From Anaerolineae bacterium (lineage in GTDB: Bacteria; Chloroflexota; Anaerolineae; Aggregatilineales; Aggregatilineaceae): 64,000 bases of DNA. Made by a program: the position numbers and the translations under genes. Below are positions 11,034-40,698 of this stretch, piece by piece. Below the pieces are notes generated by a model. That model was not told the origin of the DNA. It saw only the letters and a list, made by a program, of their open reading frames with translations, and did no database searches. Location of the stretch: contig JAFGNU010000060.1 in the NCBI GenBank assembly GCA_016926875.1, forward strand, positions 468 to 64,467, given 5' to 3'. The first letter of the stretch is position 1, and each line of letters opens with the position of its first letter.

Positions 11034-11150
11034 TTAAGTCATTGGCCGTTTGCTGGTGGCGTCTTCCAGGCTGACAGCGCCGATATCGCGCCCGTGCAGC
11101 CCGACCATCACGCCGCTTTCACCGGCCAGCAGGCGTTGTGTGGCCGCCAC
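11034..11150 (-). pseudogene. orphan duplicate of the pfkA 3' end
   Basis: 11048-11150 matches 11933-12035 at 98/103 nt. On the minus strand it reads VAATQRLLAGESGVMVGLHGRDIGAVSLEDATSKRPMT*. It has no upstream PFK body. Confidence 0.7.
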
Positions 11151-11882: not shown

Positions 11883-12851
11883 TTATGACAGCAGCGATGC
11901 TATGTGGACGTATTCTTCTGCGACGGCTCGCTGTTTGCTGGTGGCGTCTTCCAGGCTGACAACGCCAATATCGCGCCCGTGCAGCCCCACCATCACGCCG
12001 CTTTCCCCGGCCAGCAGGCGCTGTGTGGCCGCCACGCCAAGCCGGGTTGCCAGCAGGCGGTCAAATGCGCTGGGGCTGCCGCCGCGCACCACGTGTCCCA
12101 ACACCGTCACGCGCACCTCAAACCCGATCTCGTGGCTTTTCAGGTAGTCGGCGATCTCGTTGGTGGTGGGCGTTGCGCCTTCGGCGATGATGCCCATGGC
12201 ATGACTCTTGCCGACCATGTAGGCATGTTCGAGCACTTTGCCGATTTCTTCGAGAGTGGTTGGATACTCCGGCACCATGACAAACTCGGCGCCGCCCAGG
12301 ATGCCGCCCACCGTCGCCAGGTAGCCGCAGTTGCGCCCCATGACTTCCAGCAGGAAACAGCGCTCATGGCTGCTGGCCGTATCGCGCAGCTTGTCGACGG
12401 CGTCCAGAATGGTGTTCAGCGCGGTGTCCACGCCGATGCTGGTGTTGGTGCCCCAGATATCGTTGTCGATGCTGCCGGGCACACCGATCACCGGGAAGCC
12501 CATTTTGTGCAGCGACAGCGCGCCGCGCAGGCTGCCGTCTCCACCGATGACCACCATGCCCTCGATACCGTGTTCGTTCAGACGGCGCAGGCCGCGCTTC
12601 TGGCCCTGGGGGGTTTTGAATTCCAGATTGCGGGCGGTTTGCAGGACGGTGCCGCCGCGCTGGATGATGCCGCTGACGTCGCGGCTGGTCATGCGTTCCA
12701 GGTCACCGGACAGCAGGCCGGAGTAAGCCTGCCGGATGCCGTAGACTTCGACATTTTGAGCCGTTGCGGTGCGCACAACAGCGCGGATAGCCGCGTTCAT
12801 GCCTGGGGCGTCGCCCCCGCTTGTCATGACTGCAATACGTTGCATGGTCAT
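11883..12851 (-). CDS. pfkA: ATP-dependent 6-phosphofructokinase
   Basis: IAVMTSGGDAPGMNAAIRAVV, plus GGDGSLRGA (Gly104 type), VPGSIDNDI (Gly124 type) and EVMGRNCGYLA. Confidence 0.92.
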   Translation of the reverse strand: MTMQRIAVMTSGGDAPGMNAAIRAVVRTATAQNVEVYGIRQAYSGLLSGDLERMTSRDVSGIIQRGGTVLQTARNLEFKTPQGQKRGLRRLNEHGIEGMVVIGGDGSLRGALSLHKMGFPVIGVPGSIDNDIWGTNTSIGVDTALNTILDAVDKLRDTASSHERCFLLEVMGRNCGYLATVGGILGGAEFVMVPEYPTTLEEIGKVLEHAYMVGKSHAMGIIAEGATPTTNEIADYLKSHEIGFEVRVTVLGHVVRGGSPSAFDRLLATRLGVAATQRLLAGESGVMVGLHGRDIGVVSLEDATSKQRAVAEEYVHIASLLS

Positions 12852-16643: not shown

Positions 16644-16745
16644 CAACTACTGGTCCAGATTTGCACGCAAGCCGTGCCGCGCGTGTTGCCGCTGCTGCCC
16701 GGCACACTGTACAATGAACCCGGTATTGATACACAAGGGGGTAGT

Positions 16746-17963
16746 ATGCCGGTGCAGCAGGTATTCATCAGCTACAAACGCGACGACTCTGACGATTTTG
16801 TGCGCTGGCTGGCGGCGGGACTGCGCGCGGCGGGCGTGCACACCTGGGTAGACGTCGAAGACATCGATCCCGGCGAGAACTGGGACGTGGCCGTCGAACG
16901 CGGGCTGGACGCCTGCGACGCGATGATCGCGGTCCTGACGCCGGGCGCGGTCAAGTCCAGGAATGTACGGGACGAGTGGTCGTTTTTCCTCGACGAGGAC
17001 AAACCAGTTTACCCGGTCATGCTCCAGAAATGCCGCGTACCGTACCGCCTGCGGCGCGTGCAGCACATCGACTTCAGCCGCGACCCGGACGGCGCGCTGG
17101 CGGACCTGCTCGATGCGTTGGGGGCAGCCGCACACCACCCGCCGACTGAACCCGACCGCCTGCCGTTCGAACCGGAGACGGTGTTGGTCCCGGCGGGACC
17201 GTGTGTGATCGGCAGCACGGCGGCGCATGTCGCAGCGCTGAAGGACCAACACCACAACTGGGATTGGCCGGAGAAAACGGAGCAGCCGCAGCACACCGTC
17301 ACGCTGCCGGACTACCGCATCGGCAGATACCCGGTGACGGTGGGCGAATACCGGGCCTTTGTCGAGGCGGGCGGCTACCGGGAGCGGCGCTGGTGGACTG
17401 ACGCAGGCTGGCGCGTGCGCGGTGAGGAAAACTGGACCGCGCCGCATTACTGGGATGATAAGAAGTGGACCGGCGATGACCGGCTGCCGGTGATTGGCGT
17501 AAGCTGGTATGAAGCGGTCGCGTACTGCCGCTGGCTGGCGGCGCAGACGGGCCAACCCTACCGCCTGCCAACCGAGATCGAATGGGAAAAGGCGGCCAGG
17601 GGGCCGGATGGGCGGCGGTATCCCTGGGGCGATGCGTGGCGAAACGAGGTATGTACCACCCAGGAAGCGGGGATTGGGCACACAACGCCGGTCGGGCGGT
17701 ACAGCCCGGCGGGTGACAGCCCGTATGGCGCGGCGGACATGGCGGGTAGTGTGTGGGAGTGGTGTACAACCGGGTGGCGGGATACCTACGAGGAGGCGGC
17801 GGACGATGATCTGGACGGCGATGCCCGGCGGGTGGTGCGCGGCGGGTCGTGGGGTGACAACCAGGGCGACGCGCGCGCCATGTCTCGCTACGGGCTTCAG
17901 GCTGCGTCCCGGCTCAGCTTTAACGGCTTTCGGGTGGTATATACCCCGCCTGATTCCGCGTGA
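16746..17963 (+). CDS. TIR domain / FGE-sulfatase (SUMF1, C-type-lectin fold) fusion protein
   Basis: SD AAGGGGG before the ATG at 16746. TIR segment: VFISYKRDDSDDFVRWL...DAMIAVLTPGAVKSRNVRDEW. FGE segment: RIGRYPVTVGEYRAFV, SWYEAVAYCRWL, YRLPTEIEWEKAARG, MAGSVWEWC, RGGSW, GFRVV. Confidence 0.85.
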   Translation: MPVQQVFISYKRDDSDDFVRWLAAGLRAAGVHTWVDVEDIDPGENWDVAVERGLDACDAMIAVLTPGAVKSRNVRDEWSFFLDEDKPVYPVMLQKCRVPYRLRRVQHIDFSRDPDGALADLLDALGAAAHHPPTEPDRLPFEPETVLVPAGPCVIGSTAAHVAALKDQHHNWDWPEKTEQPQHTVTLPDYRIGRYPVTVGEYRAFVEAGGYRERRWWTDAGWRVRGEENWTAPHYWDDKKWTGDDRLPVIGVSWYEAVAYCRWLAAQTGQPYRLPTEIEWEKAARGPDGRRYPWGDAWRNEVCTTQEAGIGHTTPVGRYSPAGDSPYGAADMAGSVWEWCTTGWRDTYEEAADDDLDGDARRVVRGGSWGDNQGDARAMSRYGLQAASRLSFNGFRVVYTPPDSA

Positions 17964-17978
17964 GCGTGTATGTGGAAA

Positions 17979-18081
17979 GCCCTCACCCTTCCGACTACGT
18001 CGGGTCCCTCTCCCTCAGGGCGAGGGATTAGCTTAGCTCTTACTCCCCTCTCCATGAGGGAGAAGGGCGGGGGATGAGGGC
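17979..18081. repeat. nested-palindrome REP/MITE-like element (CCCTCTCC/GAGAGGG family)
   Basis: Outer arms GCCCTCA (17979-17985) and TGAGGGC (18075-18081). Inner hairpins CCTCTCCCTCAGGGCGAGGG and CCCCTCTCCATGAGGGAGAAGGGCGGGG. Confidence 0.7.
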
Positions 18082-18178
18082 CGAAAAGCGACTTTCCTGA
18101 GCACCTGCCCGCACCTTGATCATTTCTGCCGGGCGGTGTTTACTATAGATGGTCCATCTTACACCCCAAGGGGGCGAT

Positions 18179-19417
18179 ATGCGCTTGTTCATCAGCTACG
18201 CACACGTTGATCGACCGCTGGTCGCGCAGTTAGTGTCGATTCTGCGCGCGGGTGGCTGCGATCCCTGGTTCGATCACCGCCTGCTGCCCGGCCAGGACTG
18301 GCAGGCCGAACTGCTGCGCGCGATCCGGGCGTGCGATGGCTTCGTCTATGCCCTGACGCCGGAGTCGGTCGCGTCCGAGTGGTGCCGCTGGGAGTTCGCG
18401 GAGGCGGTCAAGCTGGGTAAGCCGGTCGTGCCGGTGCTGCTGCAAGCGGGAACCCAACTGCCGGATGCATTGATCCGCCTGCAATACGCCGATTTTTCGG
18501 ACGGGGCAACACCAGAGGCGGTCGCGGCGCTGATGGGCGGCCTGACACGTATTGCTGTGCGCCTCAAGCCTGGCGACGTCCCGCCCGCGCCGAGCCAGCC
18601 GCGCGGCGTTCCCGCCCAGGCGCAGCCACCCGCACCCGACCGCCTGCCGTTTGAACCGGAGACGGTGCTGATCCCGGCGGGGCCATTTTTGATGGGCAGC
18701 GACCCGGCCAAAGACCCAAATGCAATAGAAAACGAGCAGCCGCAGCACACGGTCACGCTGCCGGACTACCGCATCGGCAGGTACCCGGTCACGGTGGGTG
18801 AATACCGGGCCTTTGTCGAGGCGGGCGGCTACCGGGAGCGGCGCTGGTGGACGGACGCGGGCTGGCGCGTGCGCGGCAAGGAAAGCTGGACCGCGCCGCG
18901 TTACTGGGATGATAAGAAGTGGACCGGCGATGACCGGCTGCCGGTGGTGGGCGTAAGCTGGTACGAGGCTTACGCGTACTGCCGCTGGCTGGCGGCGCAG
19001 ACGGGCCGGACCTACCGCTTGCCAACCGAGGCCGAGTGGGAAAAGGCGGCCAGGGGGCCGGATGGACAGATTTATCCCTGGGGCGATGCGTGGCGCGACG
19101 GGCTGTGCAATACGTGGGAAGCGAAGATCAAGCGCACCACACCGGTTGGGCAGTACTACCCGGCGGACAGCCCGTATGGCGTAGCGGATATGGCGGGCAA
19201 TGTGTGGGAGTGGTGTATGACGAAATGGCGGGGCGGCTATCAGAAGGCGCCGGACGATGACCCGGACGGTGATTTCGCGCGGGTGCTGCGGGGCGGCTCG
19301 TGGGGCTACGACTTTCACCGCGCGCGCTGCGCCGTCCGCAACATCTACAACCCGCACTACTGGAACTACCACTTCGGGTTTCGGTGTGTGTGCGCTGTCC
19401 CGTCTGATCCCGCCTGA
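18179..19417 (+). CDS. TIR domain / FGE-sulfatase fusion protein, paralogue 2
   Basis: SD AAGGGGG before the ATG at 18179. TIR segment: MRLFISYAHVDR...FVYALTPESVASEWCRWEFAEAV (SxWCxxE). FGE segment: RIGRYPVTVGEYRAFV ... MAGNVWEWC ... RGGSW ... GFR. Confidence 0.85.
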   Translation: MRLFISYAHVDRPLVAQLVSILRAGGCDPWFDHRLLPGQDWQAELLRAIRACDGFVYALTPESVASEWCRWEFAEAVKLGKPVVPVLLQAGTQLPDALIRLQYADFSDGATPEAVAALMGGLTRIAVRLKPGDVPPAPSQPRGVPAQAQPPAPDRLPFEPETVLIPAGPFLMGSDPAKDPNAIENEQPQHTVTLPDYRIGRYPVTVGEYRAFVEAGGYRERRWWTDAGWRVRGKESWTAPRYWDDKKWTGDDRLPVVGVSWYEAYAYCRWLAAQTGRTYRLPTEAEWEKAARGPDGQIYPWGDAWRDGLCNTWEAKIKRTTPVGQYYPADSPYGVADMAGNVWEWCMTKWRGGYQKAPDDDPDGDFARVLRGGSWGYDFHRARCAVRNIYNPHYWNYHFGFRCVCAVPSDPA

Positions 19418-19442: not shown

Positions 19443-19471
19443 TTGGCAAATGGTCCGCCATGCTTTATAAT
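19443..19471 (+). promoter_or_regulatory. sigma-70-type promoter for the cysK leader
   Basis: TTGGCA (19443-19448), a 17-nt spacer, then TATAAT (19466-19471). Confidence 0.5.
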
Positions 19472-19526
19472 ACGCTTAGAACCGCTATTTAAGCAGATGA
19501 GTATCGTGTAAAAGGTTGTACATCGC

Positions 19527-19607
19527 ATGAACCGCACCCGGATTTGCTCCTGTACATGTTTGGCGACAATCAAGGCGCAGCGCTTGGGGTGTGGTGCGAT
19601 GGGTTGA
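19527..19607 (+). CDS. candidate Cys-rich leader peptide (26 codons)
   Basis: The ORF from the ATG reads MNRTRICSCTCLATIKAQRLGCGAMG*, with three Cys in codons 7-11. It lies between the promoter and an intrinsic terminator upstream of cysK. The SD is weak (AAAGG). Confidence 0.35.
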   Translation: MNRTRICSCTCLATIKAQRLGCGAMG

Positions 19608-19639
19608 ATGCGGCTGTAGGTCAGGTCAGGCAAACTCGG

Positions 19640-19668
19640 CGGTCACGCAGCAAGCGTGGCCGTTTTTT
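19640..19668 (+). terminator. intrinsic terminator in the cysK leader
   Basis: CGGTCACGC (19640-19648), loop AGCAA, GCGTGGCCG (19654-19662): 9 bp with one G-U pair. Followed by TTTTTTATTTGGTTT. Confidence 0.6.
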
Positions 19669-21494: not shown

Positions 21495-23069
21495 TTACCG
21501 CTCTGCCGCGATGCGCCACACGGCGACCGTTTTGCCGCCGCGCGGGCGGTCGACAGCAAAGACCAGTTCCCAGGTGTACGGGGGCGTCTGCGGCGGCGCG
21601 TCGAGCGGGGTGTGCTCGGTGTAGTCGGTGACCAGGTAGACGAACGGCCACGTGTCCGCCGCGTCATAGACGGGCGTCCAGGCGCGCACGTCGGCGGGCA
21701 TGTTGTCGGTTGGGACGTGCTGGCGGTCGATGCACGTCCAGGCGAATTCATCCGTGAGATGCAGCGCGATGCTGCCACAGTGGCGCAGCACACCGACCGC
21801 CGGAATCCGCCCGCCGATACGGTCCCCGTGATCGCGCAGATAATCCAGCGCGTCGCGCGTGCCCCAGCCCGCAAACGGCCCGGAGATGTAGCTGCTCACG
21901 TCGCGCTCCGGCAGATGCAGCGCCGCCGGGTTGTGGCTGGCGTCGTAGGCGAACGGCAGCGCAAAGCCGACCGCCCACAGGCCGATCCCCCCGGCGATCA
22001 GTGCGCCTGCGAACCGGGGTGCCAGGGGTCGGGTGATCTCTGCGATCCCGCCGCTAATGAGGACAGCCAACGCCGGGACGCCCGCTGCCAGGTAGCGCGT
22101 CTGGACCGGGCTGCCGAGGATCACACTTGGCCCCCACAGCGCCAGCAGCCAGACCAGCACGTACAGCCCCGCCGCCGTCCGCCGTCGCAGCAGCACCAGC
22201 GTACAGCCCACCAACACGAGCGCCCCCGGTGATGAGAGCAGGATCACTACGCCGTCAAGTGTATCGCGCAGGTTCTCGGTCAGGTCGGTGATACCCGGTT
22301 CGCCGTCCACTAAATAGCTATCGATCACATTTGTACTGCCGCTGGCGTGGGCATCGGCCAGCAGCCCCAGCGCGTATCCGCTCCACACCAGCGCCCAGCC
22401 GATCAGCACGGCGATCAGCGGGCGGAGAACGGCCTTCCCCCTCAAACGCCAGCCCTCACTCACCCCGGCGGTGGGTCGCCCTTGTCGCCGTAACAGCACC
22501 AGCGCGATCAGTGGCAGGACTACCACGCCCAGCGTTGTAAGTTTTGCCAGCGCAGTCAGGCCTGCCAGCAGCCCGACCGCCAGCCCGCGCCGGACGGTCG
22601 GTTTGCGGGCTAAGCGAATGCTGCCCCAGGCCGTCAGCGCGGCCAGCGCCCCGGCGAACGGGTCCGCCAGCGCCAGCCGTTCGAAAAACAGCGCGTAAGG
22701 GGCCAGCGCGTACAGCGCCAGCGTTGGCACTGCCGCCCGCCGTCCGAACAGGTCCCGTGCCGTGGCAGCAGCAGCGGCGCTCCCGATCAATGAAAACAAC
22801 CCGATCGCGATCCGTGCCAGGGCCAGTTCCGAATCACCGCCCAGGCCAAACAGCCCCAGCCAGTAATATAACAGCAGCTTGCCATGACTGAAGCTGACCG
22901 GGTTTTGATCGAAGTCATAGACCACCGCCGCGCGGCGGATGTGGTGGTGTTCGTCCACAAAAGCGGACTGCAACGCCGGGTGATGGCAACGCAGGGCGAA
23001 TTGCACGATCAGCAGGGCGACGATCAGGGGTAGGGCGGACGTGCGCCGGGGGAGAACGGTTCGAGTCAT
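21495..23069 (-). CDS. GT-C fold (ArnT/PMT-like, family 39/83-type) membrane glycosyltransferase, paralogue 1
   Basis: Polytopic protein. The first-loop acidic motif FVDEHHHIRR is followed by SHGKLLLYYWLGLF. About 65% identical to paralogue 2 over the N-terminal half. The ATG at 23069 aligns with the paralogue starts; the ORF is open to a TTG at 23117. Confidence 0.78.
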   Translation of the reverse strand: MTRTVLPRRTSALPLIVALLIVQFALRCHHPALQSAFVDEHHHIRRAAVVYDFDQNPVSFSHGKLLLYYWLGLFGLGGDSELALARIAIGLFSLIGSAAAAATARDLFGRRAAVPTLALYALAPYALFFERLALADPFAGALAALTAWGSIRLARKPTVRRGLAVGLLAGLTALAKLTTLGVVVLPLIALVLLRRQGRPTAGVSEGWRLRGKAVLRPLIAVLIGWALVWSGYALGLLADAHASGSTNVIDSYLVDGEPGITDLTENLRDTLDGVVILLSSPGALVLVGCTLVLLRRRTAAGLYVLVWLLALWGPSVILGSPVQTRYLAAGVPALAVLISGGIAEITRPLAPRFAGALIAGGIGLWAVGFALPFAYDASHNPAALHLPERDVSSYISGPFAGWGTRDALDYLRDHGDRIGGRIPAVGVLRHCGSIALHLTDEFAWTCIDRQHVPTDNMPADVRAWTPVYDAADTWPFVYLVTDYTEHTPLDAPPQTPPYTWELVFAVDRPRGGKTVAVWRIAAER

Positions 23070-23131
23070 CCAGTCGTTTACCTGTGCTGCAACGCGTTCT
23101 GTGTAAACCAGACCCAAATAACCGCCCGCCA

Positions 23132-23166
23132 GAAAAAAACGCCCTGCATCAGTTTGACACAGGGCG
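23132..23166 (-). terminator. intrinsic terminator of cspA
   Basis: Minus strand: CGCCCTG, a 13-nt loop, CAGGGCG, then TTTTTTT. Lies 23 nt after the cspA stop. Confidence 0.65.
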
Positions 23167-23188
23167 TATGGCTAGCTTGCGTTAGTGC

Positions 23189-23407
23189 TTAGTTGCTTGC
23201 ACGCCTTACCTGGCTGGCCTGCGGGCCTTTTTGACCCTGAGTGACCACGAAAGTAACATGCTCACCCTCGGCAAGTTCGCGGTAACCTTCGCTCTGGATC
23301 TCGCTGTGATGCACGAACACATCCGGAGCACCTTCACGCTCAATGAACCCAAAACCCTTCTGGGCATTGAACCACTTCACGATACCACTTTCACGTTCTT
23401 CAGACAT
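23189..23407 (-). CDS. cspA: cold-shock protein (CspA family)
   Basis: [30 protein letters not shown] carries the RNP1 motif KGFGFI and the RNP2 motif VFVHH. Confidence 0.95.
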
Positions 23408-23469
23408 TTGGGGATTTCCTTCCCACTAAAATTGGTTTGGTGTCGTGGGAATGGAGTTGCTTAGGGGAG

Positions 23470-23504
23470 AAAAAAACCCAGCGCCCTGGTTCAGTTGCGC
23501 TGGG
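23470..23504 (-). terminator. intrinsic-terminator-like hairpin inside the cspA 5' leader
   Basis: Minus strand: CCCAGCGC, a 12-nt loop, GCGCTGGG, then TTTTTTT (23470-23476). Lies about 63 nt upstream of the cspA ATG and downstream of the predicted cspA promoter. Confidence 0.55.
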
Positions 23505-23549
23505 GATTGATATCCTGTCCTGCGAACAACCTTTTCCACTACAAAGATA

Positions 23550-23577
23550 ATTATACCCCAGTTTTTTTAAACGGCAA
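23550..23577 (-). promoter_or_regulatory. candidate cspA promoter
   Basis: Minus strand: TTGCCG (23577-23572), a 16-nt spacer, then TATAAT (23555-23550). Confidence 0.4.
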
Positions 23578-23686
23578 TATTGGTTTTTGTATTAGGGGTG
23601 TAGCCCAAATCTTGACCGAGATGTGGGGGGGCATAATGCCCAGAACTGCTGCCGCGCCGGTTCCACAACCATCACACAAGCGGCGG

Positions 23687-25303
23687 CTACTCCGCTGCCA
23701 CGCGCCACACGGCGACCGTGCGCCCGCCGTGCGGGTGCGCGAAGCTGTACACCAGGTCCCAGGCCAGCGGCGGATCGGCGGGCGGGGCGTCGAGCGGGAT
23801 GCGGTCGGTGTACTCGGTCAGCAGGTAGACAAACGGCCAGCGCTGCAAGCCGTCCATCAGCACATACCACTCGGACAGGTCAGCGGGCAGGCGCTTGTCC
23901 GGCATAAAGTCGTAGGGGTCCATGCAGTTCCAGGCAAAATCATCCGTCAGGTGCAGCGTCAGCGTGCCGCAGTGCAGGAAGACGCCCACGGCGGGCACAA
24001 TGCCGTCGAACCGCTCGCCGTTAGCGCGCAGGTAGTCCAGCCCTTGCTTGATACCCCACGTATTGAACGATCCCCGGAAGTAATCGTATTGATCTTTGTC
24101 GGGCAGATTCAGCGCCGCCGGGTCGGTCATGGCGTCCACGTTGAAGGGCAGCGCAAAACCTACCGCCCAGGGCACCAGCACGATCACCGCCAGCGCCGAC
24201 GTGGCGACCTGCGCCGCCCGCGTGTGCGAGATCGATGCCGACAGCCGCGCCGCGAGATCGCCCAGCACATCGCCTGCCGCCGCGATCCCGCCGCCGAACA
24301 CGACCGCCAGCGCCGGGACGCCCGCCATCAGGTAGCGCGACTGCACCGTGACGATCAGCGCAACGATGGGCACCCAGATCAACAGCAGCCAGACCAGCGC
24401 GTACAGTCCGCCGCGCGGACAGCGCCACAGCAGCAGCGGTATCATGCCCACCAGCAGCCACGCCAGCGCCGGGGAGATCAGCAGCGGCCCCCGTTCCAGG
24501 AACAACTCGACCTTGTCCAGCAGCGAACCGGCTTCGTTTTCGATCAGGTGCGCATCGATCAATAACGGCGTATCCCCTGCCAGCCGGTTCGCCAGCGCCG
24601 CGATCAGCACCGCGCCCCATACCACGCCGAAAACCGCGCCCGCCGCGATCCACGCCTCCCGGTTGCGCTGCCAGATCGCCCCGATCCAGGCGCGCAGATC
24701 GGCCCCGGTGCGCCCCGGTGGCCGGTCCGGGCCAAACAGCAGCACGCCGATCAGCGGCAGCGCCACAACCGGCGCGGTGGTCAGCTTGGCGAGCGGGGCA
24801 AAGGCCAGCACCAGCCCGGCCCACAGCCCGCGCTCTGCCGTTGGGCGGCGGACCAGGCGCAGACTCGCCCAGGCGGCCAGCGCCGCCAGCGCCCCGGCGA
24901 AGGGATCCGCCAGCGCCATCCGGTCAAAAAACACGGCGTAGGGCACCAGCGCGTAAAACGCCAGGGCCGGGATCATCGCCCGCCGCCCGAACAGGTCCCG
25001 CGCGACGGCGGCCAGCGCCGCGCCGCCCAGCAGCGTAAACAGCGCGTTGGCCGTGCGCGCCACCATCAGCCCTGCCGGGTCAAATGGGCGGAACAGCCCC
25101 AGCCAGTAGTACAGCAGCAGCTTGCCGTGACTGTAGCGGGCCGGGTTGGTGTCAAAATCGTAGACGATGCGGGCGCGCCGGATGTGGCTGTACTCGTCCA
25201 CAAAGGCGGGCAGTTCGGTGATGTTGTGCGCGCGCAGGATAAACTGCCCGATCAACAGCAGCACAATCAGCGCAAGATAGGCGCGGGAAAGCTTCGGACG
25301 CAT
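23687..25303 (-). CDS. GT-C fold membrane glycosyltransferase, paralogue 2
   Basis: FVDEYSHIRRARIVYDFDTNPARYSHGKLLLYYWLGLF. Polytopic. The C-terminal soluble domain ends GGRTVAVWRV. Confidence 0.8.
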   Translation of the reverse strand: MRPKLSRAYLALIVLLLIGQFILRAHNITELPAFVDEYSHIRRARIVYDFDTNPARYSHGKLLLYYWLGLFRPFDPAGLMVARTANALFTLLGGAALAAVARDLFGRRAMIPALAFYALVPYAVFFDRMALADPFAGALAALAAWASLRLVRRPTAERGLWAGLVLAFAPLAKLTTAPVVALPLIGVLLFGPDRPPGRTGADLRAWIGAIWQRNREAWIAAGAVFGVVWGAVLIAALANRLAGDTPLLIDAHLIENEAGSLLDKVELFLERGPLLISPALAWLLVGMIPLLLWRCPRGGLYALVWLLLIWVPIVALIVTVQSRYLMAGVPALAVVFGGGIAAAGDVLGDLAARLSASISHTRAAQVATSALAVIVLVPWAVGFALPFNVDAMTDPAALNLPDKDQYDYFRGSFNTWGIKQGLDYLRANGERFDGIVPAVGVFLHCGTLTLHLTDDFAWNCMDPYDFMPDKRLPADLSEWYVLMDGLQRWPFVYLLTEYTDRIPLDAPPADPPLAWDLVYSFAHPHGGRTVAVWRVAAE

Positions 25304-25445
25304 GGGGGGATGCTCCTGGCGTGTGCGTATGGTTCGGAATCCAACTTGGCGGCAAGCATACCATTGTGTGAGGCGGTGTCAAGCGTGGGGTAGGGTGGGG
25401 GTGCATCTCAAATCTGGGGCGACACCTGGCTAAGCGCTCGCTTGT

Positions 25446-25494
25446 GTAGGGGCAATGCTTGCATTGCCCAGGACAGAGCAAGCTCTGCCCCTAC
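25446..25494. repeat. REP-like compound hairpin (GTAGGGGC family)
   Basis: Outer arms GTAGGGGC (25446-25453) and GCCCCTAC (25487-25494). Inner perfect stem GGGCAATGC-TT-GCATTGCCC. Confidence 0.7.
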
Positions 25495-25815
25495 GAGATT
25501 GATCCTGCCCCGAATGTGGGATACACCCGTAGGGTGGTTGACAGGCAGCAGCGGTGTTCGCTAAAATGGGGACAAATGGCGCGATGGCGGGATGATCCCG
25601 CCTGTGTTGACAGGAAGGATGCCAATGGGCAGCAAGGTGACTACCCCTTAGTCCGGATCGGAACGGCCTGAGTGTATAATCCTTGTCGCCCCGCGTGACT
25701 TGTTTTTGCTGTCTGCCCACAGGTTGACAAACGCTGCACATGGCTGTCCCGGTGTGGCGTTTTTTGATTCCCGGCAGACAGCAAACGTAATCAGCAGCGG
25801 AAAGGAAGTTTGATC

Positions 25816-26583
25816 ATGCATACAACGCAAGCCAAAGACATGACCGTCACGATCTATGCCTGCCAGGAGCGCCCTGATCTGCAGGAGCAGGATTACCGTG
25901 AACTGGCGCCAGAATGGCCGACCTTCATGTTTCATGATCCCTATGCCGCCCAACACTACCCGACGATGTACGAGCGCTGTCCCGATTTCCAGTTCTACGT
26001 GGTGACCAAAGCGGACCGGGTCGTAGCGTCGGGCAACAGCATACCGCTGGTGTGGGATGGCACAGAGGATGACCTGCCCACCGGCTGGGATGACGGCCTG
26101 GCGCGCGGCGCACAGGGGGCGCTGGATGGCATCGCGCCCAATGCGTTGTGCGCCATCCAGGTGACGGTATCCAGCAAATTCCTGGGGCATGGACTGGGTG
26201 AGTTGGGTGTGCAAACGATGCTCAGGCTTGCGCGTGAGCACGGTTTCCACGCCCTGATCGCGCCGGTGCGCCCGACCGTCAAGGCTCAATACCCGCTCAC
26301 GCCGATGGAGCGCTATATCGCCTGGACGCGCGATGATGGGCAGTTGTTTGATCCCTGGATGCGTATTCACGTCAAGCTGGGCGCGCAGGTGATCAAGATC
26401 GCGCCCGAATCGATGAAGATTCCCGGCACCGTGGCCCAGTGGGAAGAATGGGCCGGGATGCAGTTCCCGGACAGCGGCCTGTATGTTGTGCCGGGCGCGC
26501 TGGTGCCCATTACGATAGACCGCGACCGGGACGAGGGCGTGTATATCGAGCCGAATGTGTGGATGGTCCACCGATTGGATTAA
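25816..26583 (+). CDS. putative GNAT-type acyltransferase
   Basis: SD AAAGGAAG lies 7 nt before the ATG at 25816. VSSKFLGHGLGELGVQTMLRLAREHG resembles the acetyl-CoA-binding Q/RxxGxG/A segment. The assignment is tentative. Confidence 0.5.
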   Translation: MHTTQAKDMTVTIYACQERPDLQEQDYRELAPEWPTFMFHDPYAAQHYPTMYERCPDFQFYVVTKADRVVASGNSIPLVWDGTEDDLPTGWDDGLARGAQGALDGIAPNALCAIQVTVSSKFLGHGLGELGVQTMLRLAREHGFHALIAPVRPTVKAQYPLTPMERYIAWTRDDGQLFDPWMRIHVKLGAQVIKIAPESMKIPGTVAQWEEWAGMQFPDSGLYVVPGALVPITIDRDRDEGVYIEPNVWMVHRLD

Positions 26584-26615
26584 GCCGCGCATGTGTAGAG
26601 GCGCGCCGGTGCGGA

Positions 26616-28265
26616 TCACTGCACCCGCCAGACCGTTACCGGCCTGCCGTCATGGGGGCGCGGGTATGATCCGAAGAAGTCCCATGTAAGGCCCGGTACG
26701 CCGCCGGGTATTTCGTCTGGGGCCAGGTAGTCGGTCAGCACGTAGACGAACGGCCAGCGATCCAGGGTATCCAGCAGCGTCGTCCAGGTGGACACGTCGC
26801 GCGGGACACGCTGATCGGGGAAATCGTGCGACGACATGCACGCCCAGATGAAACCGTCCGGCATGACCAGCGTGTGCACGTTGCACACCCGCAGCACGCC
26901 CACCACCGGAATCTGGTCACTGTAGCTGCTCATCACGCCGACGCTGGGAACCTGCCCGTTGAGCTGCTCGCCGCGCGCCTGTAGATCAAGAAAGGCGTCG
27001 TGCGTGCCCCAGGTGGTGAACAGGCCGGAGAAGTAATTCGTCACGTCGCGGTGCGGCATATCCAGGCTGCCGGGATCGGTCGTGGCCGTGCGGGCGAACG
27101 GGATCGCAAAGCCGACCGCCCACGCCGCGATCACGACCAGCGCCAGGACGCCGCCCGTCCATGCCCCCGCTTGCTGCCGTGCGGTTGATTCGCGCGTCCG
27201 TGCCAGCCAGCCGCCGAGGCTGTCGCCCGCGATCACCATGCCGCCGCCAAACATCACGGCCAGCGCCGGGACGCCCGCCATCAAGTAGCGGGATTGCAGC
27301 TCGGTGGCGACCAGCGTGATCGGCACCCAGATCACGGCCAGCCAGGCCAGCGCGTACAGCGCCGCCCGCGTGCGCCGCCACAGCAGCAGGATCGCCAGCC
27401 CGCCTAGCAGCGCCGCCATCGGGTGCGAGAGCAGGTAGCCGGTTTTGTCGATGAACGTGTTTTCCAGCCGGTCGAGCGCGCCGCCCGCCCGCGTATTGTC
27501 CCCAATCAGGTAGGTGTCCAGCAGCGTCGCCTGCTCGCCTTCCCCGACCGTGTACCACAGTCCCGCGCCGGTGGTGAACAGCCAGGGGATCACCGCCACT
27601 ACGCCCGCGATCACCAGCGGCCCACCGTAGCGCGCCCAGGCCGCCCGGCTCCACGCCCGGATCGCGCCCAGGCTCCGGCCATGCAGCGCCACGTCACCAA
27701 ACAGCAAAACCGCCAGCGGGGCTAGCACGGCGATCACGGCGGTCGTCAGCTTGGCCATGGCCGCCAGCGTGACCAGCAGCCCAACGATCACGCCCTGCCG
27801 CCGCGTGGGACGTTGCGCCAGTCGGATGCACTGCCACGCCGTCAGCGCCGCCAGCGCCCCGGCGAAGGGGTCCGCGAACACCATCCGGTCAAAGAACAAT
27901 GCGTAGGGGGCTAGCGCATAAAAGGCCAGCGCCGGGACCATCGCTCGCTCCCCGAACAGGGCGCGCGCCGCCGCCAGCATCCCCGCGCTGCCGACCAGCG
28001 AAAACAGCGCAATCGCGATCCGCGCCGCCGCCAGCGTGCCGTGCCGCTCGTCCAACTGGAACAGCCCCAGCCAGAAATACAGCCCCAGCTTGCCGTGACT
28101 GTCCACGATGGGCGAGCGCTCCAGGTGGATCAGGGCGCGGGCGCGCTCGATATGGCTGTTTTCGTCCCAGAAAGCAGCCATCGCCAGCGGGTTGTGGATG
28201 CGCAGATAAAGCTGGACGAGCAGCAGCAGGACGATCAGGATCAGGCGGGCGCGGGCGAGTTTCAT
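26616..28265 (-). CDS. GT-C fold membrane glycosyltransferase, paralogue 3
   Basis: FWDENSHIERARALIHLERSPIVDSHGKLGLYFWLGLF. Same architecture as paralogues 1 and 2. The C-terminus ends DGRPVTVWRV. Confidence 0.8.
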   Translation of the reverse strand: MKLARARLILIVLLLLVQLYLRIHNPLAMAAFWDENSHIERARALIHLERSPIVDSHGKLGLYFWLGLFQLDERHGTLAAARIAIALFSLVGSAGMLAAARALFGERAMVPALAFYALAPYALFFDRMVFADPFAGALAALTAWQCIRLAQRPTRRQGVIVGLLVTLAAMAKLTTAVIAVLAPLAVLLFGDVALHGRSLGAIRAWSRAAWARYGGPLVIAGVVAVIPWLFTTGAGLWYTVGEGEQATLLDTYLIGDNTRAGGALDRLENTFIDKTGYLLSHPMAALLGGLAILLLWRRTRAALYALAWLAVIWVPITLVATELQSRYLMAGVPALAVMFGGGMVIAGDSLGGWLARTRESTARQQAGAWTGGVLALVVIAAWAVGFAIPFARTATTDPGSLDMPHRDVTNYFSGLFTTWGTHDAFLDLQARGEQLNGQVPSVGVMSSYSDQIPVVGVLRVCNVHTLVMPDGFIWACMSSHDFPDQRVPRDVSTWTTLLDTLDRWPFVYVLTDYLAPDEIPGGVPGLTWDFFGSYPRPHDGRPVTVWRVQ

Positions 28266-36088: not shown

Positions 36089-37183
36089 CTACACAAACAG
36101 CCTGAGTTTGTCAAAATCGGCGCGCAGCGTGTCTTTCTGGCTGGCGCTGTATAACACCACGGCGGGATGGTACATCGGCAGGACGTGGATTTCGCCGTAG
36201 GGCATCTGCGCCTTGATCAGCTTGCCGTGCAGCGCGCTGATCTTGCCGCCCTTTTCGGGCAGGTCCAGCTTCTTGAGGATGTAGTGCGCGGCGAACCGGC
36301 CCAGCGGCACGATCACCGACGGCTGGATGATGTCGATCAGCCGGTCCACGAACGGCGTGTAGTAGGCGATCTCGTCGGCGGTTGGATCGCGTTTGCCGGG
36401 CGGGCGGTCCAGCAGGATATTGGTGGTGAACACGTCCTCACGGCCCAGGCCGATGTCGGTCAGCATCTCGTCGAATACGTCGCCGGACGGGCCGTTGAAC
36501 GGAATGCCCGATTCAGCTTCGTATTTGCCCGGCGCTTCACCGATAAACAGGATGCTCGCGTCGGCGTAGCCATCGCCCAACACGGGGAAGGCGCGCATCT
36601 TGGTGCGGTAGGCGTACAGCGGCGAGTCGGTTGCATCGACCAGTTCCAGGCGCAGCGCTTTGATCGCTTCTTCTTTGCGGCGCAGCGCGGCAGCATCGGC
36701 GGGCGCTTTGCCGGACCTGCTCGTGCGCACGGCGCTTTTGATCACATCCACCAGCTTGTGCATATCGTAGCCAAAGCGGTGATGGCTCAGTTCAATCGCG
36801 TTGCGCCGGGCCAGCGACGCGAGATCGTCCGGCAGATCGACGGGAGCGGGCATCGGCGCGCGCCCGACCAGCACCGGGATCACGAGCTGGCCGCCCTTCA
36901 GCGCGCTGGCGATCTCGATGCGTACAAAGTCGTTCGGCTGGTCCAACCGGCGGCGGCCTGCCTCGTCGGTGATGGTCAACCAGGACGGGCCGATCACCGC
37001 GATGAACACGTCACACGCGGCGACGGCGTCTTCGAGTGTCTGGACAAAGTCCGCGCCCGGCTCGATGTTATCCACATCCATGAAGACGTCGGCGTGATCG
37101 AAGTGCTGGACCAGGTGATCGTACAGCCGCCCGACGTACCCTTCGCTGTCCTGCCTGCGGTAGCTGATGAATATCCGGCTCAT
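36089..37183 (-). CDS. TIR domain fused to family-4-like uracil-DNA glycosylase domain (no Fe-S cysteines)
   Basis: TIR segment: MSRIFISYRRQDSEGYVGRLYDHL, DVFMDVDNIEPGADF, CDVFIAVIGPSW, DFVRIEIASAL. UDG segment: ILFIGEAPG, GIPFNGPSGDVF, VFTTNILLDRPP, VLPMYHPAVVLY. Confidence 0.85.
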   Translation of the reverse strand: MSRIFISYRRQDSEGYVGRLYDHLVQHFDHADVFMDVDNIEPGADFVQTLEDAVAACDVFIAVIGPSWLTITDEAGRRRLDQPNDFVRIEIASALKGGQLVIPVLVGRAPMPAPVDLPDDLASLARRNAIELSHHRFGYDMHKLVDVIKSAVRTSRSGKAPADAAALRRKEEAIKALRLELVDATDSPLYAYRTKMRAFPVLGDGYADASILFIGEAPGKYEAESGIPFNGPSGDVFDEMLTDIGLGREDVFTTNILLDRPPGKRDPTADEIAYYTPFVDRLIDIIQPSVIVPLGRFAAHYILKKLDLPEKGGKISALHGKLIKAQMPYGEIHVLPMYHPAVVLYSASQKDTLRADFDKLRLFV

Positions 37184-37586: not shown

Positions 37587-37623
37587 GCCAAAGGAAATCC
37601 TAAGCTGTAGGATTTCCTTTGGC
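37587..37623. terminator. perfect 15-bp hairpin straddling the stop codon of the HD-GHKL gene
   Basis: GCCAAAGGAAATCCT (37587-37601), a 7-nt loop, AGGATTTCCTTTGGC (37609-37623). No clear U-run on the minus strand. Confidence 0.45.
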
Positions 37624-40600
37624 CCAGTGTTCAAAATCTTCAGAAGTGACCTTAGTTATTTCCCCGTTAGCAAGACGAATGGTGTATGGTGGATGAAGCC
37701 TTGTATCGACCCTTGACCAGTCTACATCTTTGTATCGATTACCCAAACGTAATTGTCCATAAGTAAGTTCGGAATCATCAAACGATTCTTGAGTGCTAAG
37801 CGTCCATATAGCGCTCAGTGCAAAGTTTTGAAGGTCTGAGGGGGCTTCACGATAACGAGCATCCTGGGCCTGTTTAACAAGAGGGTGACTCCGGTTAACT
37901 GAACGAACAGGCATATGAACAGAAAAGAACTCTTGAGCTTCGCTCGAATATGGCAAAAGAATCAAGTGGCTGGTTATTCCGTTAAAAACAAATTCCCAAG
38001 GGGAGGTATTGGGTTGGGTAGGAGACTGTATTTCAAGTATTGCCGAGTTATTCTTTATAGTAACTGTAGACATTGTTGCTACAATGATTTTTATACTCCA
38101 TTCCAAACCGTGTTTCTCACTCCTTTTGGGCAACCATTTTGTGAGGGTTTCGTAAGCACCGACATTTCCCTCGTTTCCATATAATATTTGATATGATTCC
38201 TTATCTGAGCTTTTCAGTTCAATTGCGTTCAAGGAATGGATGGGAATCCATTTACGTAATTTATCTTCAAAGACGATTGGTACGGCGATTTTCGACCAGA
38301 TTGCATTTGCCCGCATCAGGAAAACCGATGTTTCACCATTACGAGAACCATAAATAACTGCCAATTGCCAAAAGGTTTCGTCGTCCAGTCTCTCCCCTAA
38401 TTGAGAAGCGATTTGTTCCCATAATCTGCCTTGCCCTCTCTCTGCAAGCATCTGAATATAATCCCAGCGTGGCCCGAAGCTGAATGCCCCTCTGCTTCGG
38501 GGAGGAAAACGCGCTGGTGTTAAAGGCGGTTTGATTTGCCCCCGTATGTCTAAAAGCGCAGACATAGGGTAAAGGTCAATAGGACTAGCTCGCCAGCCTA
38601 ACGACACCTCTTTAGCTTCTCGTCCTGGCATTCCGGCTACCAAAATGCCATCAATACATGTTTGAGTATCGAGATGGCGACGATTATCCTTAAATATCTT
38701 TCCATCGGAACTAACTAAGAGAGTTTCGTCATTGTTGTCTAGTTCGTTTTTTGGTTTCCAACTTGCCTCATCGTTATCTAGAACCAAATGCCCAGCATTA
38801 TTGATGAGGAAACTAGCTCTGATACAACCGCCTAAGAGCGGGTCAATCTCTGAAAAGTCTTGCTCAATCGTTTTACAAGTTGTGATATTGGAAATTTCCA
38901 TTAGCGTCCGAGGAGTGGCAATCTTGGGAGGTATTTTTATGGTCTCGGCTAATTCTTCTATGGTGCAATTCGCGCGTATGGGAAATTCACAAGCAAGAGC
39001 ATAGCCCCGGACCATCGAGACTAGCTTTACTTGATCGCTATATTTATCCAGAAAGCTTGGTTTTTTGCGCCCGGTGATTTCAACAGAAGTGCCAACAGGT
39101 TGGCTGTCTTCTCCTTCGCGAATAACCACGATACTACCAAGCCCATTGATTTCGATAATCAATGGAGGACCGTATCCTCGTGATGGGCCATAGTCGCGAC
39201 GAGTGTAGATAATTATATGGTCACCGAGCATAAAGCACGACATGAAACCGATGCCGAATTGTGAACACGGGTCGAAATCAACTCCAGCAGCCCTAAAACT
39301 AATCCGTTCTTGCTCAAATTCTGGGGAACGATAATAACTCCGACCAACACGAGTTAGGAAACGTTCTATTATAGCCTCGTCCATACCCGCCCCGTTGTCA
39401 GTGCATCGGATTAATTCATGGCCTTGCTCGTCCAGTTCATGTTGCATGGAAATTTCGCCACCATGCCAATTATCATTGATGTTACGTTTTATTAGCGCTT
39501 GGCGGTACCGGAGCGCGTCTAAAGAGTTTTGAAGTAATTCACGGATACAAAGCGAGGGTGAACCGTATAGTTCATCAGTCATTAGAAGTTTAACAATATC
39601 ATCACGCGACAAAGAGAACTCTAGGTCATGGTATATATAGGCATTATCTTTTGGTTCAATTCGAGACCTATCGACTTTTAAGGGAAGGTCTAGTTGATAG
39701 TATTCTACATGGGCAGGAAAGCTACGATGAATATCACGCGCGTTTGCCAATTCCTGGTCAATCCAATCGATAAACCTGTAAGCCGCTCTTTGATATTCAG
39801 GGTGTTCACATCGCATCGTAAATTGGATTTGTCCACTATTTATAATCCAGCTTTCAACAGAGCGATGCTTTGCCCATTCGATTAAACTAATATTGCTGCG
39901 AAAATCAATAGTGCGATAGAGTTCGTCAGGTGTGCGTTCTCGGTCAAAATCCAAAATATCGGCAAGGCGCAAAATCAACCCTAAATACACCATATTGACT
40001 TTGTAATGTCCGATAACCTCATCGTATCGAAAACCATTTGATGGGGTCAAGTCGTACGTTGATTTAACATGTGATAAGCACAGTCTCGCCACAAATTTAG
40101 CAAGGTTAGTGCCACCAACTTCCCATCGTCTATCACTGCCGAATGTTTTACGTACAAATTCGGCTGAGCGTTGACCATGCGTTTCACGTATGTAGTCAGT
40201 CAACAGTGCACCCTTGAGTTCATACTTTAATTCTCTATAACGTTCTTGCTCATCGTCGCGCAAACTCTCATCATTCAAATGCTGTCGCACTTGTTTTAGA
40301 TTAGGGTGTTCGATTTCCCAGTTATCTTGAAATTTCTTAAATTCACTGGTTGTTTTTAAAATGTCAATTTCATCTTTTTCCAATACCATGCCTTGGTCAT
40401 GATAATGGGCAGCCAGAATAAGTAGTGTTATTTCTACTGGATTCAATTTATCAAAGACTGATGTAGGCATAATCTTTGACATTAATTCAGTGACACGAAT
40501 GAGATGAACCTCGTCGTGCAATGTATATTCAGGATGAAGAGACGGAAACCCTTTCATTCGGTTATATGCTTGGTTACATATACCAATTAGGTTTGGGGCA

Positions 40601-40698
40601 AGTGTGCCTGCAACTTGCCCATCGGCGCCAGAAAAGCCTCTGTTGAGACGTTGCCACAATGACGTATCTTCTAATTTTGCAATCCGAGTAGCAGACAT
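37600..40698 (-). CDS. large HD-domain / GHKL (Hsp90-MutL-MORC-like) ATPase protein
   Basis: HD pattern: LHDEVH ... LILAAHYHDQGM ... LRLADILDFD. GHKL motifs: IRELLQNSLDA, CTDNGAGMD, SQFGIGFMSCF. I prefer the ATG at 40698; the ORF is open to a TTG at 40728. Confidence 0.85.
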   Translation of the reverse strand: MSATRIAKLEDTSLWQRLNRGFSGADGQVAGTLAPNLIGICNQAYNRMKGFPSLHPEYTLHDEVHLIRVTELMSKIMPTSVFDKLNPVEITLLILAAHYHDQGMVLEKDEIDILKTTSEFKKFQDNWEIEHPNLKQVRQHLNDESLRDDEQERYRELKYELKGALLTDYIRETHGQRSAEFVRKTFGSDRRWEVGGTNLAKFVARLCLSHVKSTYDLTPSNGFRYDEVIGHYKVNMVYLGLILRLADILDFDRERTPDELYRTIDFRSNISLIEWAKHRSVESWIINSGQIQFTMRCEHPEYQRAAYRFIDWIDQELANARDIHRSFPAHVEYYQLDLPLKVDRSRIEPKDNAYIYHDLEFSLSRDDIVKLLMTDELYGSPSLCIRELLQNSLDALRYRQALIKRNINDNWHGGEISMQHELDEQGHELIRCTDNGAGMDEAIIERFLTRVGRSYYRSPEFEQERISFRAAGVDFDPCSQFGIGFMSCFMLGDHIIIYTRRDYGPSRGYGPPLIIEINGLGSIVVIREGEDSQPVGTSVEITGRKKPSFLDKYSDQVKLVSMVRGYALACEFPIRANCTIEELAETIKIPPKIATPRTLMEISNITTCKTIEQDFSEIDPLLGGCIRASFLINNAGHLVLDNDEASWKPKNELDNNDETLLVSSDGKIFKDNRRHLDTQTCIDGILVAGMPGREAKEVSLGWRASPIDLYPMSALLDIRGQIKPPLTPARFPPRSRGAFSFGPRWDYIQMLAERGQGRLWEQIASQLGERLDDETFWQLAVIYGSRNGETSVFLMRANAIWSKIAVPIVFEDKLRKWIPIHSLNAIELKSSDKESYQILYGNEGNVGAYETLTKWLPKRSEKHGLEWSIKIIVATMSTVTIKNNSAILEIQSPTQPNTSPWEFVFNGITSHLILLPYSSEAQEFFSVHMPVRSVNRSHPLVKQAQDARYREAPSDLQNFALSAIWTLSTQESFDDSELTYGQLRLGNRYKDVDWSRVDTRLHPPYTIRLANGEITKVTSEDFEHWAKGNPTA

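Follow-up and report, generated by a model that had tools for sequence, protein, structure and literature searches.

Tandem TIR-FGE-sulfatase genes of an Anaerolineae bacterium resemble lectin-fold sensors fused to TIR effectors, and one copy carries an adenine-mutagenesis footprint

The TIR-FGE gene pair

Two adjacent genes on the same strand of an Anaerolineae contig (JAFGNU010000060.1; the whole 64-kb stretch analysed here is referred to as the window) each encode an N-terminal TIR_2 domain followed by an FGE-sulfatase domain with the C-type lectin (CLec) fold. We propose, at a probability of roughly 0.55, that their products, referred to as gene 1 and gene 2 proteins, are a cytoplasmic pair of single-chain sensor-effectors, and that the C-terminal patch of gene 2, and not that of gene 1, was written by a diversity-generating retroelement (DGR) from a template outside the window. 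By its predicted domains and residues, the pair resembles a CLec sensor of DGR type joined to a TIR effector, a class that has been predicted computationally. The adjacent same-strand arrangement of TIR plus FGE-sulfatase genes, described in an initial annotation of this DNA, was confirmed by open reading frames (ORFs) and Pfam matches, and the peptides quoted there are present. The main features of the pair (all on the + strand) are as follows.

16746-17963, +: gene 1, 405 amino acids; TIR_2 of gene-1 type (T1) plus predicted non-catalytic FGE-sulfatase/CLec domain
16761-17105, +: gene 1 TIR_2 domain, residues 6-120; Pfam 1.7e-28; putative catalytic Glu77, codon 16974-16976
17172-17939, +: gene 1 FGE-sulfatase (C-type-lectin-fold) domain, residues 143-398, profile positions 3-254 of 255; Pfam 7.2e-55
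17838-17933, +: gene 1 hypervariable segment (RGGSW...GFR, 32 codons), colinear with DGR template repeats; no adenine-mutagenesis footprint
18179-19417, +: gene 2, 412 amino acids; TIR_2 of gene-2 type (T2) plus predicted non-catalytic FGE-sulfatase/CLec domain; alternative ATG at 18149
18188-18529, +: gene 2 TIR_2 domain; Pfam 7.6e-25; putative catalytic Glu72, codon 18392-18394, within the motif SEWCRWEF
18656-19390, +: gene 2 FGE-sulfatase (C-type-lectin-fold) domain, essentially full-length; Pfam 7.2e-64
19289-19384, +: gene 2 variable-repeat-like segment (RGGSWGYDFHRARCAVRNIYNPHYWNYHFGFR), 32 codons; DGR-type adenine-mutagenesis footprint

Hypervariable C-terminal patch and its relatives among DGR targets

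The last ~32 residues of the family combine a near-invariant scaffold (R371-G-G, A382-R383, R387, P392 and G400-F-R402) with 17 positions of near-maximal variability (entropy above 3 bits among the 39 sequences aligned). At these 17 columns Asn, Tyr, Asp, His, Ser and Phe make up 61% of the residues versus 24% in equally variable control columns of the same proteins (Fisher 5e-61), while Lys, Glu, Gln, Met and Trp are depleted (10% versus 24%; 3e-14), both P values overstating independence because the sequences are related. The five depleted residues cannot arise from the Asn codon AAC by adenine substitution.

Among the metagenome contigs carrying relatives of the pair, five loci (L056, L067, L069, L072 and L086) contain near-repeats in which 92-100% of the mismatches fall at adenines of one copy. 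Two of them, L069 (8187-12079) and L072 (8810-12430), are complete canonical DGR cassettes that consist of a Pkinase-FGE target with a C-terminal variable repeat (VR), an RVT_1 reverse transcriptase (RT), bAvd and a template repeat (TR), and the DGR target of L056 is a TPR-FGE protein. The FGE domains of these DGR-target relatives are 38-51% identical to that of gene 2, and the TRs of L056, L072 and L086 share the 32-codon register of the gene 1 and gene 2 segments, the repeat of L069 being one codon longer. The L056 template reads RGGSW-NNNPQN-ARAAYR-NRNN-P-DNSNNR-RGFR and the gene 2 segment RGGSW-GYDFHR-ARCAVR-NIYN-P-HYWNYH-FGFR. The ORFs end 9-10 codons past GFR in genes 1 and 2, and 5-13 codons past it in the DGR-target relatives. 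Gene 2 also matches the DGR target TvpA (2y3c) in sequence (3.6e-9). The remark of the initial annotation that such folds serve as DGR targets holds well here, since close FGE relatives are real DGR targets and gene 2 itself bears the footprint described in the next section.

Adenine-biased repeats also occur in L028, L030 and L053, and those of L028 and L053 were rejected as DGRs. That of L028 is intergenic and flanks a Pkinase-SH3-FGE gene, and genes for a cupin and a sugar kinase take the place where RT and Avd would be expected; that of L053 (14866-16178) is a multi-copy tandem array lying ~5 kb downstream of an FGE gene without overlapping it. Further kinase-beta-propeller genes adjoin the cassettes of L069 and L072.

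Adenine footprint of gene 2

DGR mutagenesis alters adenines only, so that descendants of AAC keep C at the third position. The test was made at the 14 register sites where one or more of the three colinear templates (L056, L072 and L086) has Asn (AAC). All 14 of the homologous codons in gene 2 are NNC, against 9.5 expected, giving P = 3e-3 when conditional on the amino acids (with the synonymous codon usage of the window) and P = 2e-7 against the gene's own C3 frequency of 0.34. Tyr, Asn, His or Asp occupies 11 of the 14 sites, compared with a background of 14% (P ~1e-7), and 14 of the 15 adenines in the 96-nt segment fall in the 14 template-Asn-equivalent codons. The positive controls, a set of confirmed VRs, gave 11-12/14 NNC, below the value of gene 2. 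Gene 1 scored 8/14 against 7 expected, with two CAG codons and the scaffold Pro replaced by Ala. Among the other gene-2-type TIR-FGE genes intermediate footprints were found (12/14 in L054, 10/14 in L001 and L050), and the gene-1-type relatives testable in this register, L048 (2/14) and L049 (6/14), have none.

The same data may tentatively be read with a sensor-effector of the same design and no DGR at all, the patch being diversified by ordinary mutation and positive selection and the gene 2 pattern arising from residue selection plus C-ending codon preference, or from ancient DGR ancestry; we consider this possible, on the doubtful side. It gains from the preference of the genome for C-ending codons of Tyr, Asn, His and Asp (67-78%), from the lack of a footprint in gene 1, L048 and L049, and from the absence of TR, RT and Avd in the window and beside the TIR-FGE genes and of a downstream hairpin (see below). 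It is opposed by the complete set of NNC codons even after conditioning on the amino acids, by the 11 sites that hold single-adenine derivatives of AAC, by the higher score of gene 2 than of bona fide VRs, by the confinement of nearly all segment adenines to the template-Asn-equivalent codons, and by a register identical to that of real TRs.

Search for a DGR in the window

Several results weigh against the proposal that gene 2 was written by a DGR and that the pair acts in conflict. An adenine-tolerant scan of both strands of the window gave no template repeat; tblastn with the L069 and L072 sequences gave neither RT nor Avd, be it in the window or at the 13 other TIR-FGE loci, the same search readily recovering the cassettes of L056, L069, L072, L075 and L086; and no hairpin or cruciform like those at active DGR target sites was found after the gene 2 segment, no inverted repeat of at least 8 nt lying within 170 nt downstream of it. 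The conditional P value of the footprint is only 3e-3, and selection for surfaces rich in Tyr, Asn, His and Asp together with GC-biased codon usage could explain it in part. As to an immune role, PADLOC has no model for the TIR-FGE architecture, and vertical inheritance among housekeeping genes, documented below, is atypical for phage defence and keeps a non-immune role conceivable.

An IUPAC pattern of the segment with 3 mismatches allowed detected in the window only the gene 2 segment itself, and had no match in viral contigs or in the retrieved relative loci. The metagenome scan likewise yielded no TR or sibling VR, a weak negative because the pattern fixed two variable codons, R381 (CGC) and V386 (GTC), whose counterparts in the TRs encode Asn. 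The Rfam scan of the window gave no family match. With no local TR, RT or Avd, gene 2 would be the remote target of a DGR at another place in the genome, or a target orphaned recently; a product of selection that mimics a DGR is the less likely origin of its footprint. Full membership among DGR targets is not established, because TR and RT were not found in the searched sequence. A stronger form of the proposal, which we regard as speculative, would make gene 2 an actively hypermutated intracellular antigen receptor on a TIR NADase, its 14-codon patch being rewritten in trans by a DGR, and gene 1 a paralogue of fixed specificity.

FGE domain as a binding module

The top Foldseek matches of the gene 2 FGE domain are the EgtB C-terminal domain, CalU17, ToxD, FGE and PvdO, with E-values from 1e-17 to 5e-24. 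The fold is complete, as the initial annotation had it, but the catalytic Cys pair is absent: where the FGE of S. coelicolor (6muj, 2q17) has the Cu(I) ligands in 'lCHdsyCN', gene 2 reads 'GYDF--H' (with a gap) and gene 1 'GDNQGD'. The EgtB, SenA and OvoA models gave 93-166 bits against cut-offs of 360-420 and matched the C-terminal FGE-like part only. The DinB-type iron-binding domain is absent from both proteins, the N-terminus being TIR, and neither the surroundings of the pair in the window nor the 13 related TIR-FGE loci yielded a sulfatase gene. Homologues consistently embedded in sulfatase-maturation operons had been named as a sign of a housekeeping FGE role; no such context was found at those 13 loci. 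Because the Cys pair, the DinB domain and the sulfatase context are all missing, the FGE domains are predicted to be non-catalytic, that is, ligand-binding modules and not enzymes.

A housekeeping enzyme for formylglycine generation or for EgtB/OvoA-like C-S bond formation, perhaps acting with the adjacent cysK-cysE, is accordingly given very little credence. Its attractions are that the EgtB C-terminal domain is the best match among solved structures, that cysK and cysE lie immediately downstream of gene 2, and that PALP/CBS or cysteine-desulfurase genes are found near L001, L002 and L049. Besides the missing Cu-binding Cys pair, DinB domain and sulfatase genes and the low scores of all the NCBIfam enzyme models, it is opposed by the absence of a sulfur neighbourhood from L003, L005, L006, L011, L048 and L050 and by the position of the hypervariable patch, which occupies the would-be active-site loop. 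Judged from the missing catalytic residues and domains, the FGE and EgtB enzyme readings are already effectively refuted. A link to sulfur or selenium amino acids (cysK-cysE in the window, PALP-CBS in L001 and L002, a cysteine desulfurase-SelD fusion in L049) was also rejected because it is inconsistent, being absent from the six other loci. The current labels of such proteins, 'SUMF1/EgtB/PvdO family nonheme iron enzyme' and 'formylglycine-generating enzyme', are contradicted by the missing catalytic residues and should be taken with caution in annotation.

An element was observed just before cysK-cysE at 19443-19664 (+), consisting of a strong promoter-like site TTGGCA-17-TATAAT (11/12 matches) and, ~170 nt further on, a terminator-like hairpin with a T-run; it has no Rfam match and may be a new leader or attenuator for cysteine biosynthesis.

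TIR domains as putative effectors

The Glu column of the TIR domain is invariant in all 39 aligned members of the family. In the alignment, SEWCRWEF of gene 2 is matched by SDWCWDEL in Cat1 and by SSWCLDEL in a plant TIR whose structure (7xoz) was deposited as that of an ADP-ribosyl cyclase / cADPR hydrolase; the Glu of this motif we take to be the TIR catalytic residue. Of the claim that both proteins keep the Glu of a WxxxE helix, the Glu stands (E77 in gene 1 and E72 in gene 2), but the Trp is found only in gene 2, gene 1 having Asn. An NADase activity of the two TIR domains is predicted from these residues.

The TIR domains of genes 1 and 2 are only ~37-40% identical and belong to two separately conserved subfamilies. 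The TIR-FGE architecture is common to at least 69 of the top 120 homologous protein clusters, among which 41 are of the gene-2 type, 15 of the gene-1 type and 13 intermediate, and the named sources are almost all Chloroflexota (Anaerolineae, Aggregatilineales, Chloroflexia and Ktedonobacterales). Gene-2-type orthologues share 60-73% identity in the TIR domain versus 33-60% in the FGE domain, indicating a conserved effector head and a variable lectin-fold domain. The gene-2-type TIR is also found elsewhere, fused to FtsK-gamma winged-helix domains or, in L051 (6001-9484), as a stand-alone protein (149 amino acids, ~66% identical to the gene 2 TIR) directly upstream of a 1001-amino-acid TIR_2-NACHT STAND protein, with an MNT/HepT toxin-antitoxin pair ~4 kb upstream on the same contig.

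As for catalogued TIR defence systems, the PADLOC and NCBIfam matches in genes 1 and 2 cover the TIR moiety only and all lie well under the family cut-offs; the match of the window TIR-FGE proteins to ThcB4, for instance, reached 35-40 bits against a cut-off of 220. No Thoeris or other partner (ThsA, SAVED, Ago, CRISPR) was found beside the gene pair.

Domain boundaries, starts and spacer

Each protein contains two Pfam domains only, with no NACHT/nSTAND NTPase between effector and FGE, and neither has a signal peptide or a membrane-spanning stretch. The AlphaFold (AF2) model of gene 2 has a mean pLDDT of 91.3, and no extra domain beyond TIR and FGE was seen in it. The decapeptide RLPFEPETVL, at 17157-17186 in gene 1 and 18641-18670 in gene 2, had been taken for the linker between the two domains; it is in fact the conserved N-terminal edge of the FGE domain (family consensus LPFEPE..LIPAG), and the Pfam match begins inside it. 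The actual linkers are Pro/Ala-rich, ~15 amino acids in gene 1 and ~40 in gene 2, and lie upstream of this peptide.

Two further elements surround the coding regions.

16686-16715, +: promoter-like site TTGCCG-18-TACAAT upstream of gene 1, a consensus match only
18005-18027, +: GC-rich palindrome (TCCCTCTCCCT / AGGGCGAGGGA) in the spacer between gene 1 and gene 2

The ORF of gene 1 opens at GTG 16674, ahead of ATG 16746. The true starts of genes 1 and 2 are most likely ATG 16746 and ATG 18179: both are preceded by the Shine-Dalgarno-like motif CAAGGGGG, the TIR-FGE homologues begin at the corresponding place, directly with the first TIR strand, and the promoter-like site lies inside the extension from GTG 16674, which favours ATG 16746 for gene 1. 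The spacer between the two genes is 215 nt (185 nt with the alternative start of gene 2), and its palindrome may be a REP-like or terminator-like element.

Origin of the pair

A core of the FGE domain is shared recently between the two genes, and divergence differs strongly from region to region, as listed below (dS and dN, synonymous and nonsynonymous divergence between gene 1 and gene 2).

17277-17579, +: recently shared FGE core, gene 1 copy; repeat family D2; 92% nucleotide identity to the gene 2 copy
18731-19033, +: recently shared FGE core, gene 2 copy; repeat family D2
TIR domains: dS 1.07 (saturated), dN 0.67
FGE core tract: dS 0.21, dN 0.054
Distal FGE: dS 0.52, dN 0.20
Hypervariable segment: dS 0.69, dN 0.79

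This contrast in dS and dN indicates that the pair is not a simple old duplication. On these values it is a mosaic, in which the TIR heads are old, the FGE core has been recently copied or converted, and the patch has since diverged fastest. The description of the genes as a diversified tandem pair is thus accurate for the last 32 codons, which are truly diversified, but not for the rest, a mosaic with a homogenised FGE core.

Tandem TIR-FGE pairs were found in two of the 14 loci, the window and L002, and tandem FGE-domain genes without TIR are common. A conserved T1+T2 pairing was considered and rejected, as the first TIR is of another type in L002, the one other locus with a tandem pair. The arrangement might be taken to indicate an obligate hetero-oligomer of the sensor-helper style (cf. 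paired plant NLRs), one protein binding the ligand and the other providing or regulating TIR activity. The adjacent same-strand genes with different conserved TIR subtypes, the second tandem pair in L002, and a shared FGE core that could support heterotypic contacts would all suit such a complex. We nevertheless regard it as improbable, since the members of the family mostly stand alone, the partner gene in L002 carries a third type of TIR, the 215-nt spacer with its palindrome suggests separate transcription, and tandem duplication is common for FGE-domain genes generally.

Genomic context

The window is an ordinary chromosome region carrying genes for a GAF histidine kinase, SDR, a lipoprotein, cysK, cysE, three putative PMT_2 glycosyltransferases, acyl-CoA dehydrogenase and methylmalonyl-CoA mutase, and the neighbours of the gene pair are those for SDR, lipoprotein, CysK, CysE and PMT_2. 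No STAND NTPase, vWA/MoxR or caspase gene lies near the pair. The gene order DM13 - Peptidase_M29 - TIR-FGE is kept in L005, L006, L050 and L052, all of the gene-2 type and from four Chloroflexota assemblies; this conserved synteny indicates vertical inheritance and not the mobility of defence islands. In L052 the TIR-FGE gene and several genes around it are broken up, probably because the long-read assembly contains frameshifts.

A conserved chromosomal signalling role in filamentous Chloroflexota, such as recognition of kin or self, cell death during development or 'regulatory pathway tuning', in which TIR would serve NAD-linked signalling or as a scaffold and would not be an anti-phage effector, is unlikely in our view although it has real points in its favour. 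These are the synteny and vertical inheritance of the gene-2 type across several genomes, the housekeeping neighbourhoods at all loci, the presence of TIR_2 also on a conserved UDG4, which shows that TIRs of this lineage are not confined to defence islands, and the regulatory interpretation of cyanobacterial DGR targets (PMC7517822). Opposed to it are the combination of an invariant catalytic Glu with a hypervariable sensor, which is a hallmark of conflict systems, the occurrence of the same TIR type beside the TIR-NACHT protein and the toxin-antitoxin pair in L051, and the literature on FGS and TIR proteins, which favours conflict roles (PMC8195603, PMC10907252).

The UDG4 gene just mentioned is the third TIR gene of the window (36089-37183, minus strand), a fusion of TIR_2 with family-4 uracil-DNA glycosylase of 364 amino acids. 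The gene noted earlier at this position is real, but it is not part of the system, and it was rejected as a member of a TIR cluster: more than 120 clusters of TIR-UDG4 homologues with 66-74% identity, the same architecture and nearly the same length exist in Anaerolineae and other Chloroflexi metagenome-assembled genomes, a distribution by which it is a conserved lineage-wide gene and not a sporadic defence gene. Its TIR could be a sensor of uracil-DNA, or a decoy that draws inhibitors of the glycosylase. The neighbouring gene at 37600-40728 (-) encodes a protein of 1042 amino acids with an HD-CE domain (PF24391, 1e-55), a weak HATPase_c_3 match and a weak PADLOC match to the C-terminal part of the RT_UG24 (DRT) model; lying in a 44% GC island of a window with ~62% GC, it is probably a horizontally acquired conflict-type gene.

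Two repeat regions were also observed in the window. Three paralogous membrane proteins of ~540 amino acids are encoded in a row at 21495-28265 (-) (repeat families D1, D3, D4 and D6), the first of which (21495-23117), the sole one scanned, matches PMT_2 (dolichyl-phosphate-mannose-type glycosyltransferase). A direct repeat of 106 nt with 94% identity is located at 11045-11150 and 11930-12035, 885 nt apart.

Proposed mode of action

Under the sensor-effector proposal, the FGE-type CLec domain would be the sensor, whose invariant scaffold (RGG-S-W ... A-R ... R ... P ... G-F-R), the one that DGRs rewrite in related proteins, displays ~14-17 hypervariable side chains, and the N-terminal TIR with its retained Glu would be the effector. 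Binding of a ligand would cluster the TIR domains into NAD+-cleaving or signal-producing assemblies, which would arrest or kill the affected cell, or signal onward, in a conflict or cell-fate system of filamentous Chloroflexota. The gene 2 patch would have been written by DGR adenine mutagenesis recently enough to escape synonymous decay. In gene 1, taken as a paralogue whose TIR head is different and older, the FGE core would have come from recombination or gene conversion, and the patch would be no longer, or never have been, DGR-written. Ligand binding, the enzymatic output of TIR, the immune or cell-fate role and the trans-acting DGR activity are all predicted steps of this scheme. The CLec sensor plus TIR effector arrangement suggested in the initial annotation fits the invariant Glu, the non-catalytic FGE domain and the hypervariable patch.

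Relation to known systems

The architecture had been described as one with no assigned function; the class has, however, already been reported, as proteins in which a DGR-type CLec/FGS domain at the C-terminus follows an N-terminal effector or signalling domain, including TIR, and whose predicted role in multicellular bacteria is the sensing of invaders or the tuning of signalling (PMC7517822, PMC7159879, PMC8195603, PMC10907252). Among the cyanobacterial DGR variable proteins (Vallota-Eastman et al. 2020, PMC7517822), an N-terminal kinase, caspase-like or, more rarely, TIR-like domain is joined to a C-terminal CLec/FGE domain, the variable region comprises the last ~100 nt, many paralogues are remote from the cassette, and most are cytosolic. 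The window genes differ in belonging to Chloroflexota, in that the cognate TR and RT were not found, in their minimal two-domain design with two TIR subtypes, and in that many TIR-FGE members are vertically inherited in conserved synteny. The STAND-NTPase-FGS and ternary MoxR-vWA systems (Kaur et al. 2020/2021, PMC7159879, PMC8195603; Dore et al. 2024, PMC10907252), which are over-represented among multicellular bacteria, employ FGS/CLec as a predicted sensor of invaders inside the cell that is diversified by DGRs and linked to effectors, TIR among them; the window genes have no central NTPase, vWA/MoxR or effector-associated adaptor, the sensor being fused directly to the effector.

The Pkinase-FGE (L069, L072) and TPR-FGE (L056) DGR targets share the C-terminal 32-codon scaffold with the window genes, but have adjacent RT, bAvd and TR and a kinase or TPR head in place of TIR. 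TvpA of Treponema denticola (PDB 2Y3C), the prototype FGE-type CLec protein of DGRs, is alike in fold and C-terminal variable region; it is a surface-exposed lipoprotein, whereas the window proteins are predicted to be cytoplasmic and carry a TIR domain. The bacterial TIR NADase effectors (Thoeris ThsB, TIR-SAVED, short pAgo TIR-APAZ and Cat1) share the TIR_2 fold and the conserved Glu, while the window genes have no ThsA, SAVED, Ago or CRISPR partner, their sensing module being the fused CLec domain. SUMF1/FGE and EgtB/OvoA have the same fold as the window FGE domains, which differ from them in the Cu(I) Cys pair, DinB domain and sulfatase or ergothioneine gene context, none of which is present. 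Our literature search yielded no paper naming a direct two-domain family of TIR_2 and FGE-sulfatase, no experimental data on any TIR-coupled DGR target, and no experimental test of DGR-diversified lectin-fold domains as antigen sensors of conflict systems.

Significance

To a specialist the architecture itself is unsurprising, but its minimal design together with a fresh footprint makes it a convenient test case for the hypothesis of DGR-diversified antigen sensors. The published examples are large multi-component systems, and the TIR-FGE proteins cut the idea down to two domains. Consumption of NAD+ by a TIR domain with one diagnostic Glu is an output easy to assay, and would make the sensor hypothesis directly testable. 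Gene 2 with its fresh footprint and gene 1 with none, on a recently copied shared core that follows different TIR heads, offer a natural experiment on the birth, diversification and retirement of a receptor. If the rewriting of gene 2 by a DGR in trans proves true, the pair would represent the simplest known sensor-effector output of a DGR, a somatically diversifying two-domain immune receptor, and would be a tractable model for whether DGR-diversified CLec domains sense invaders.

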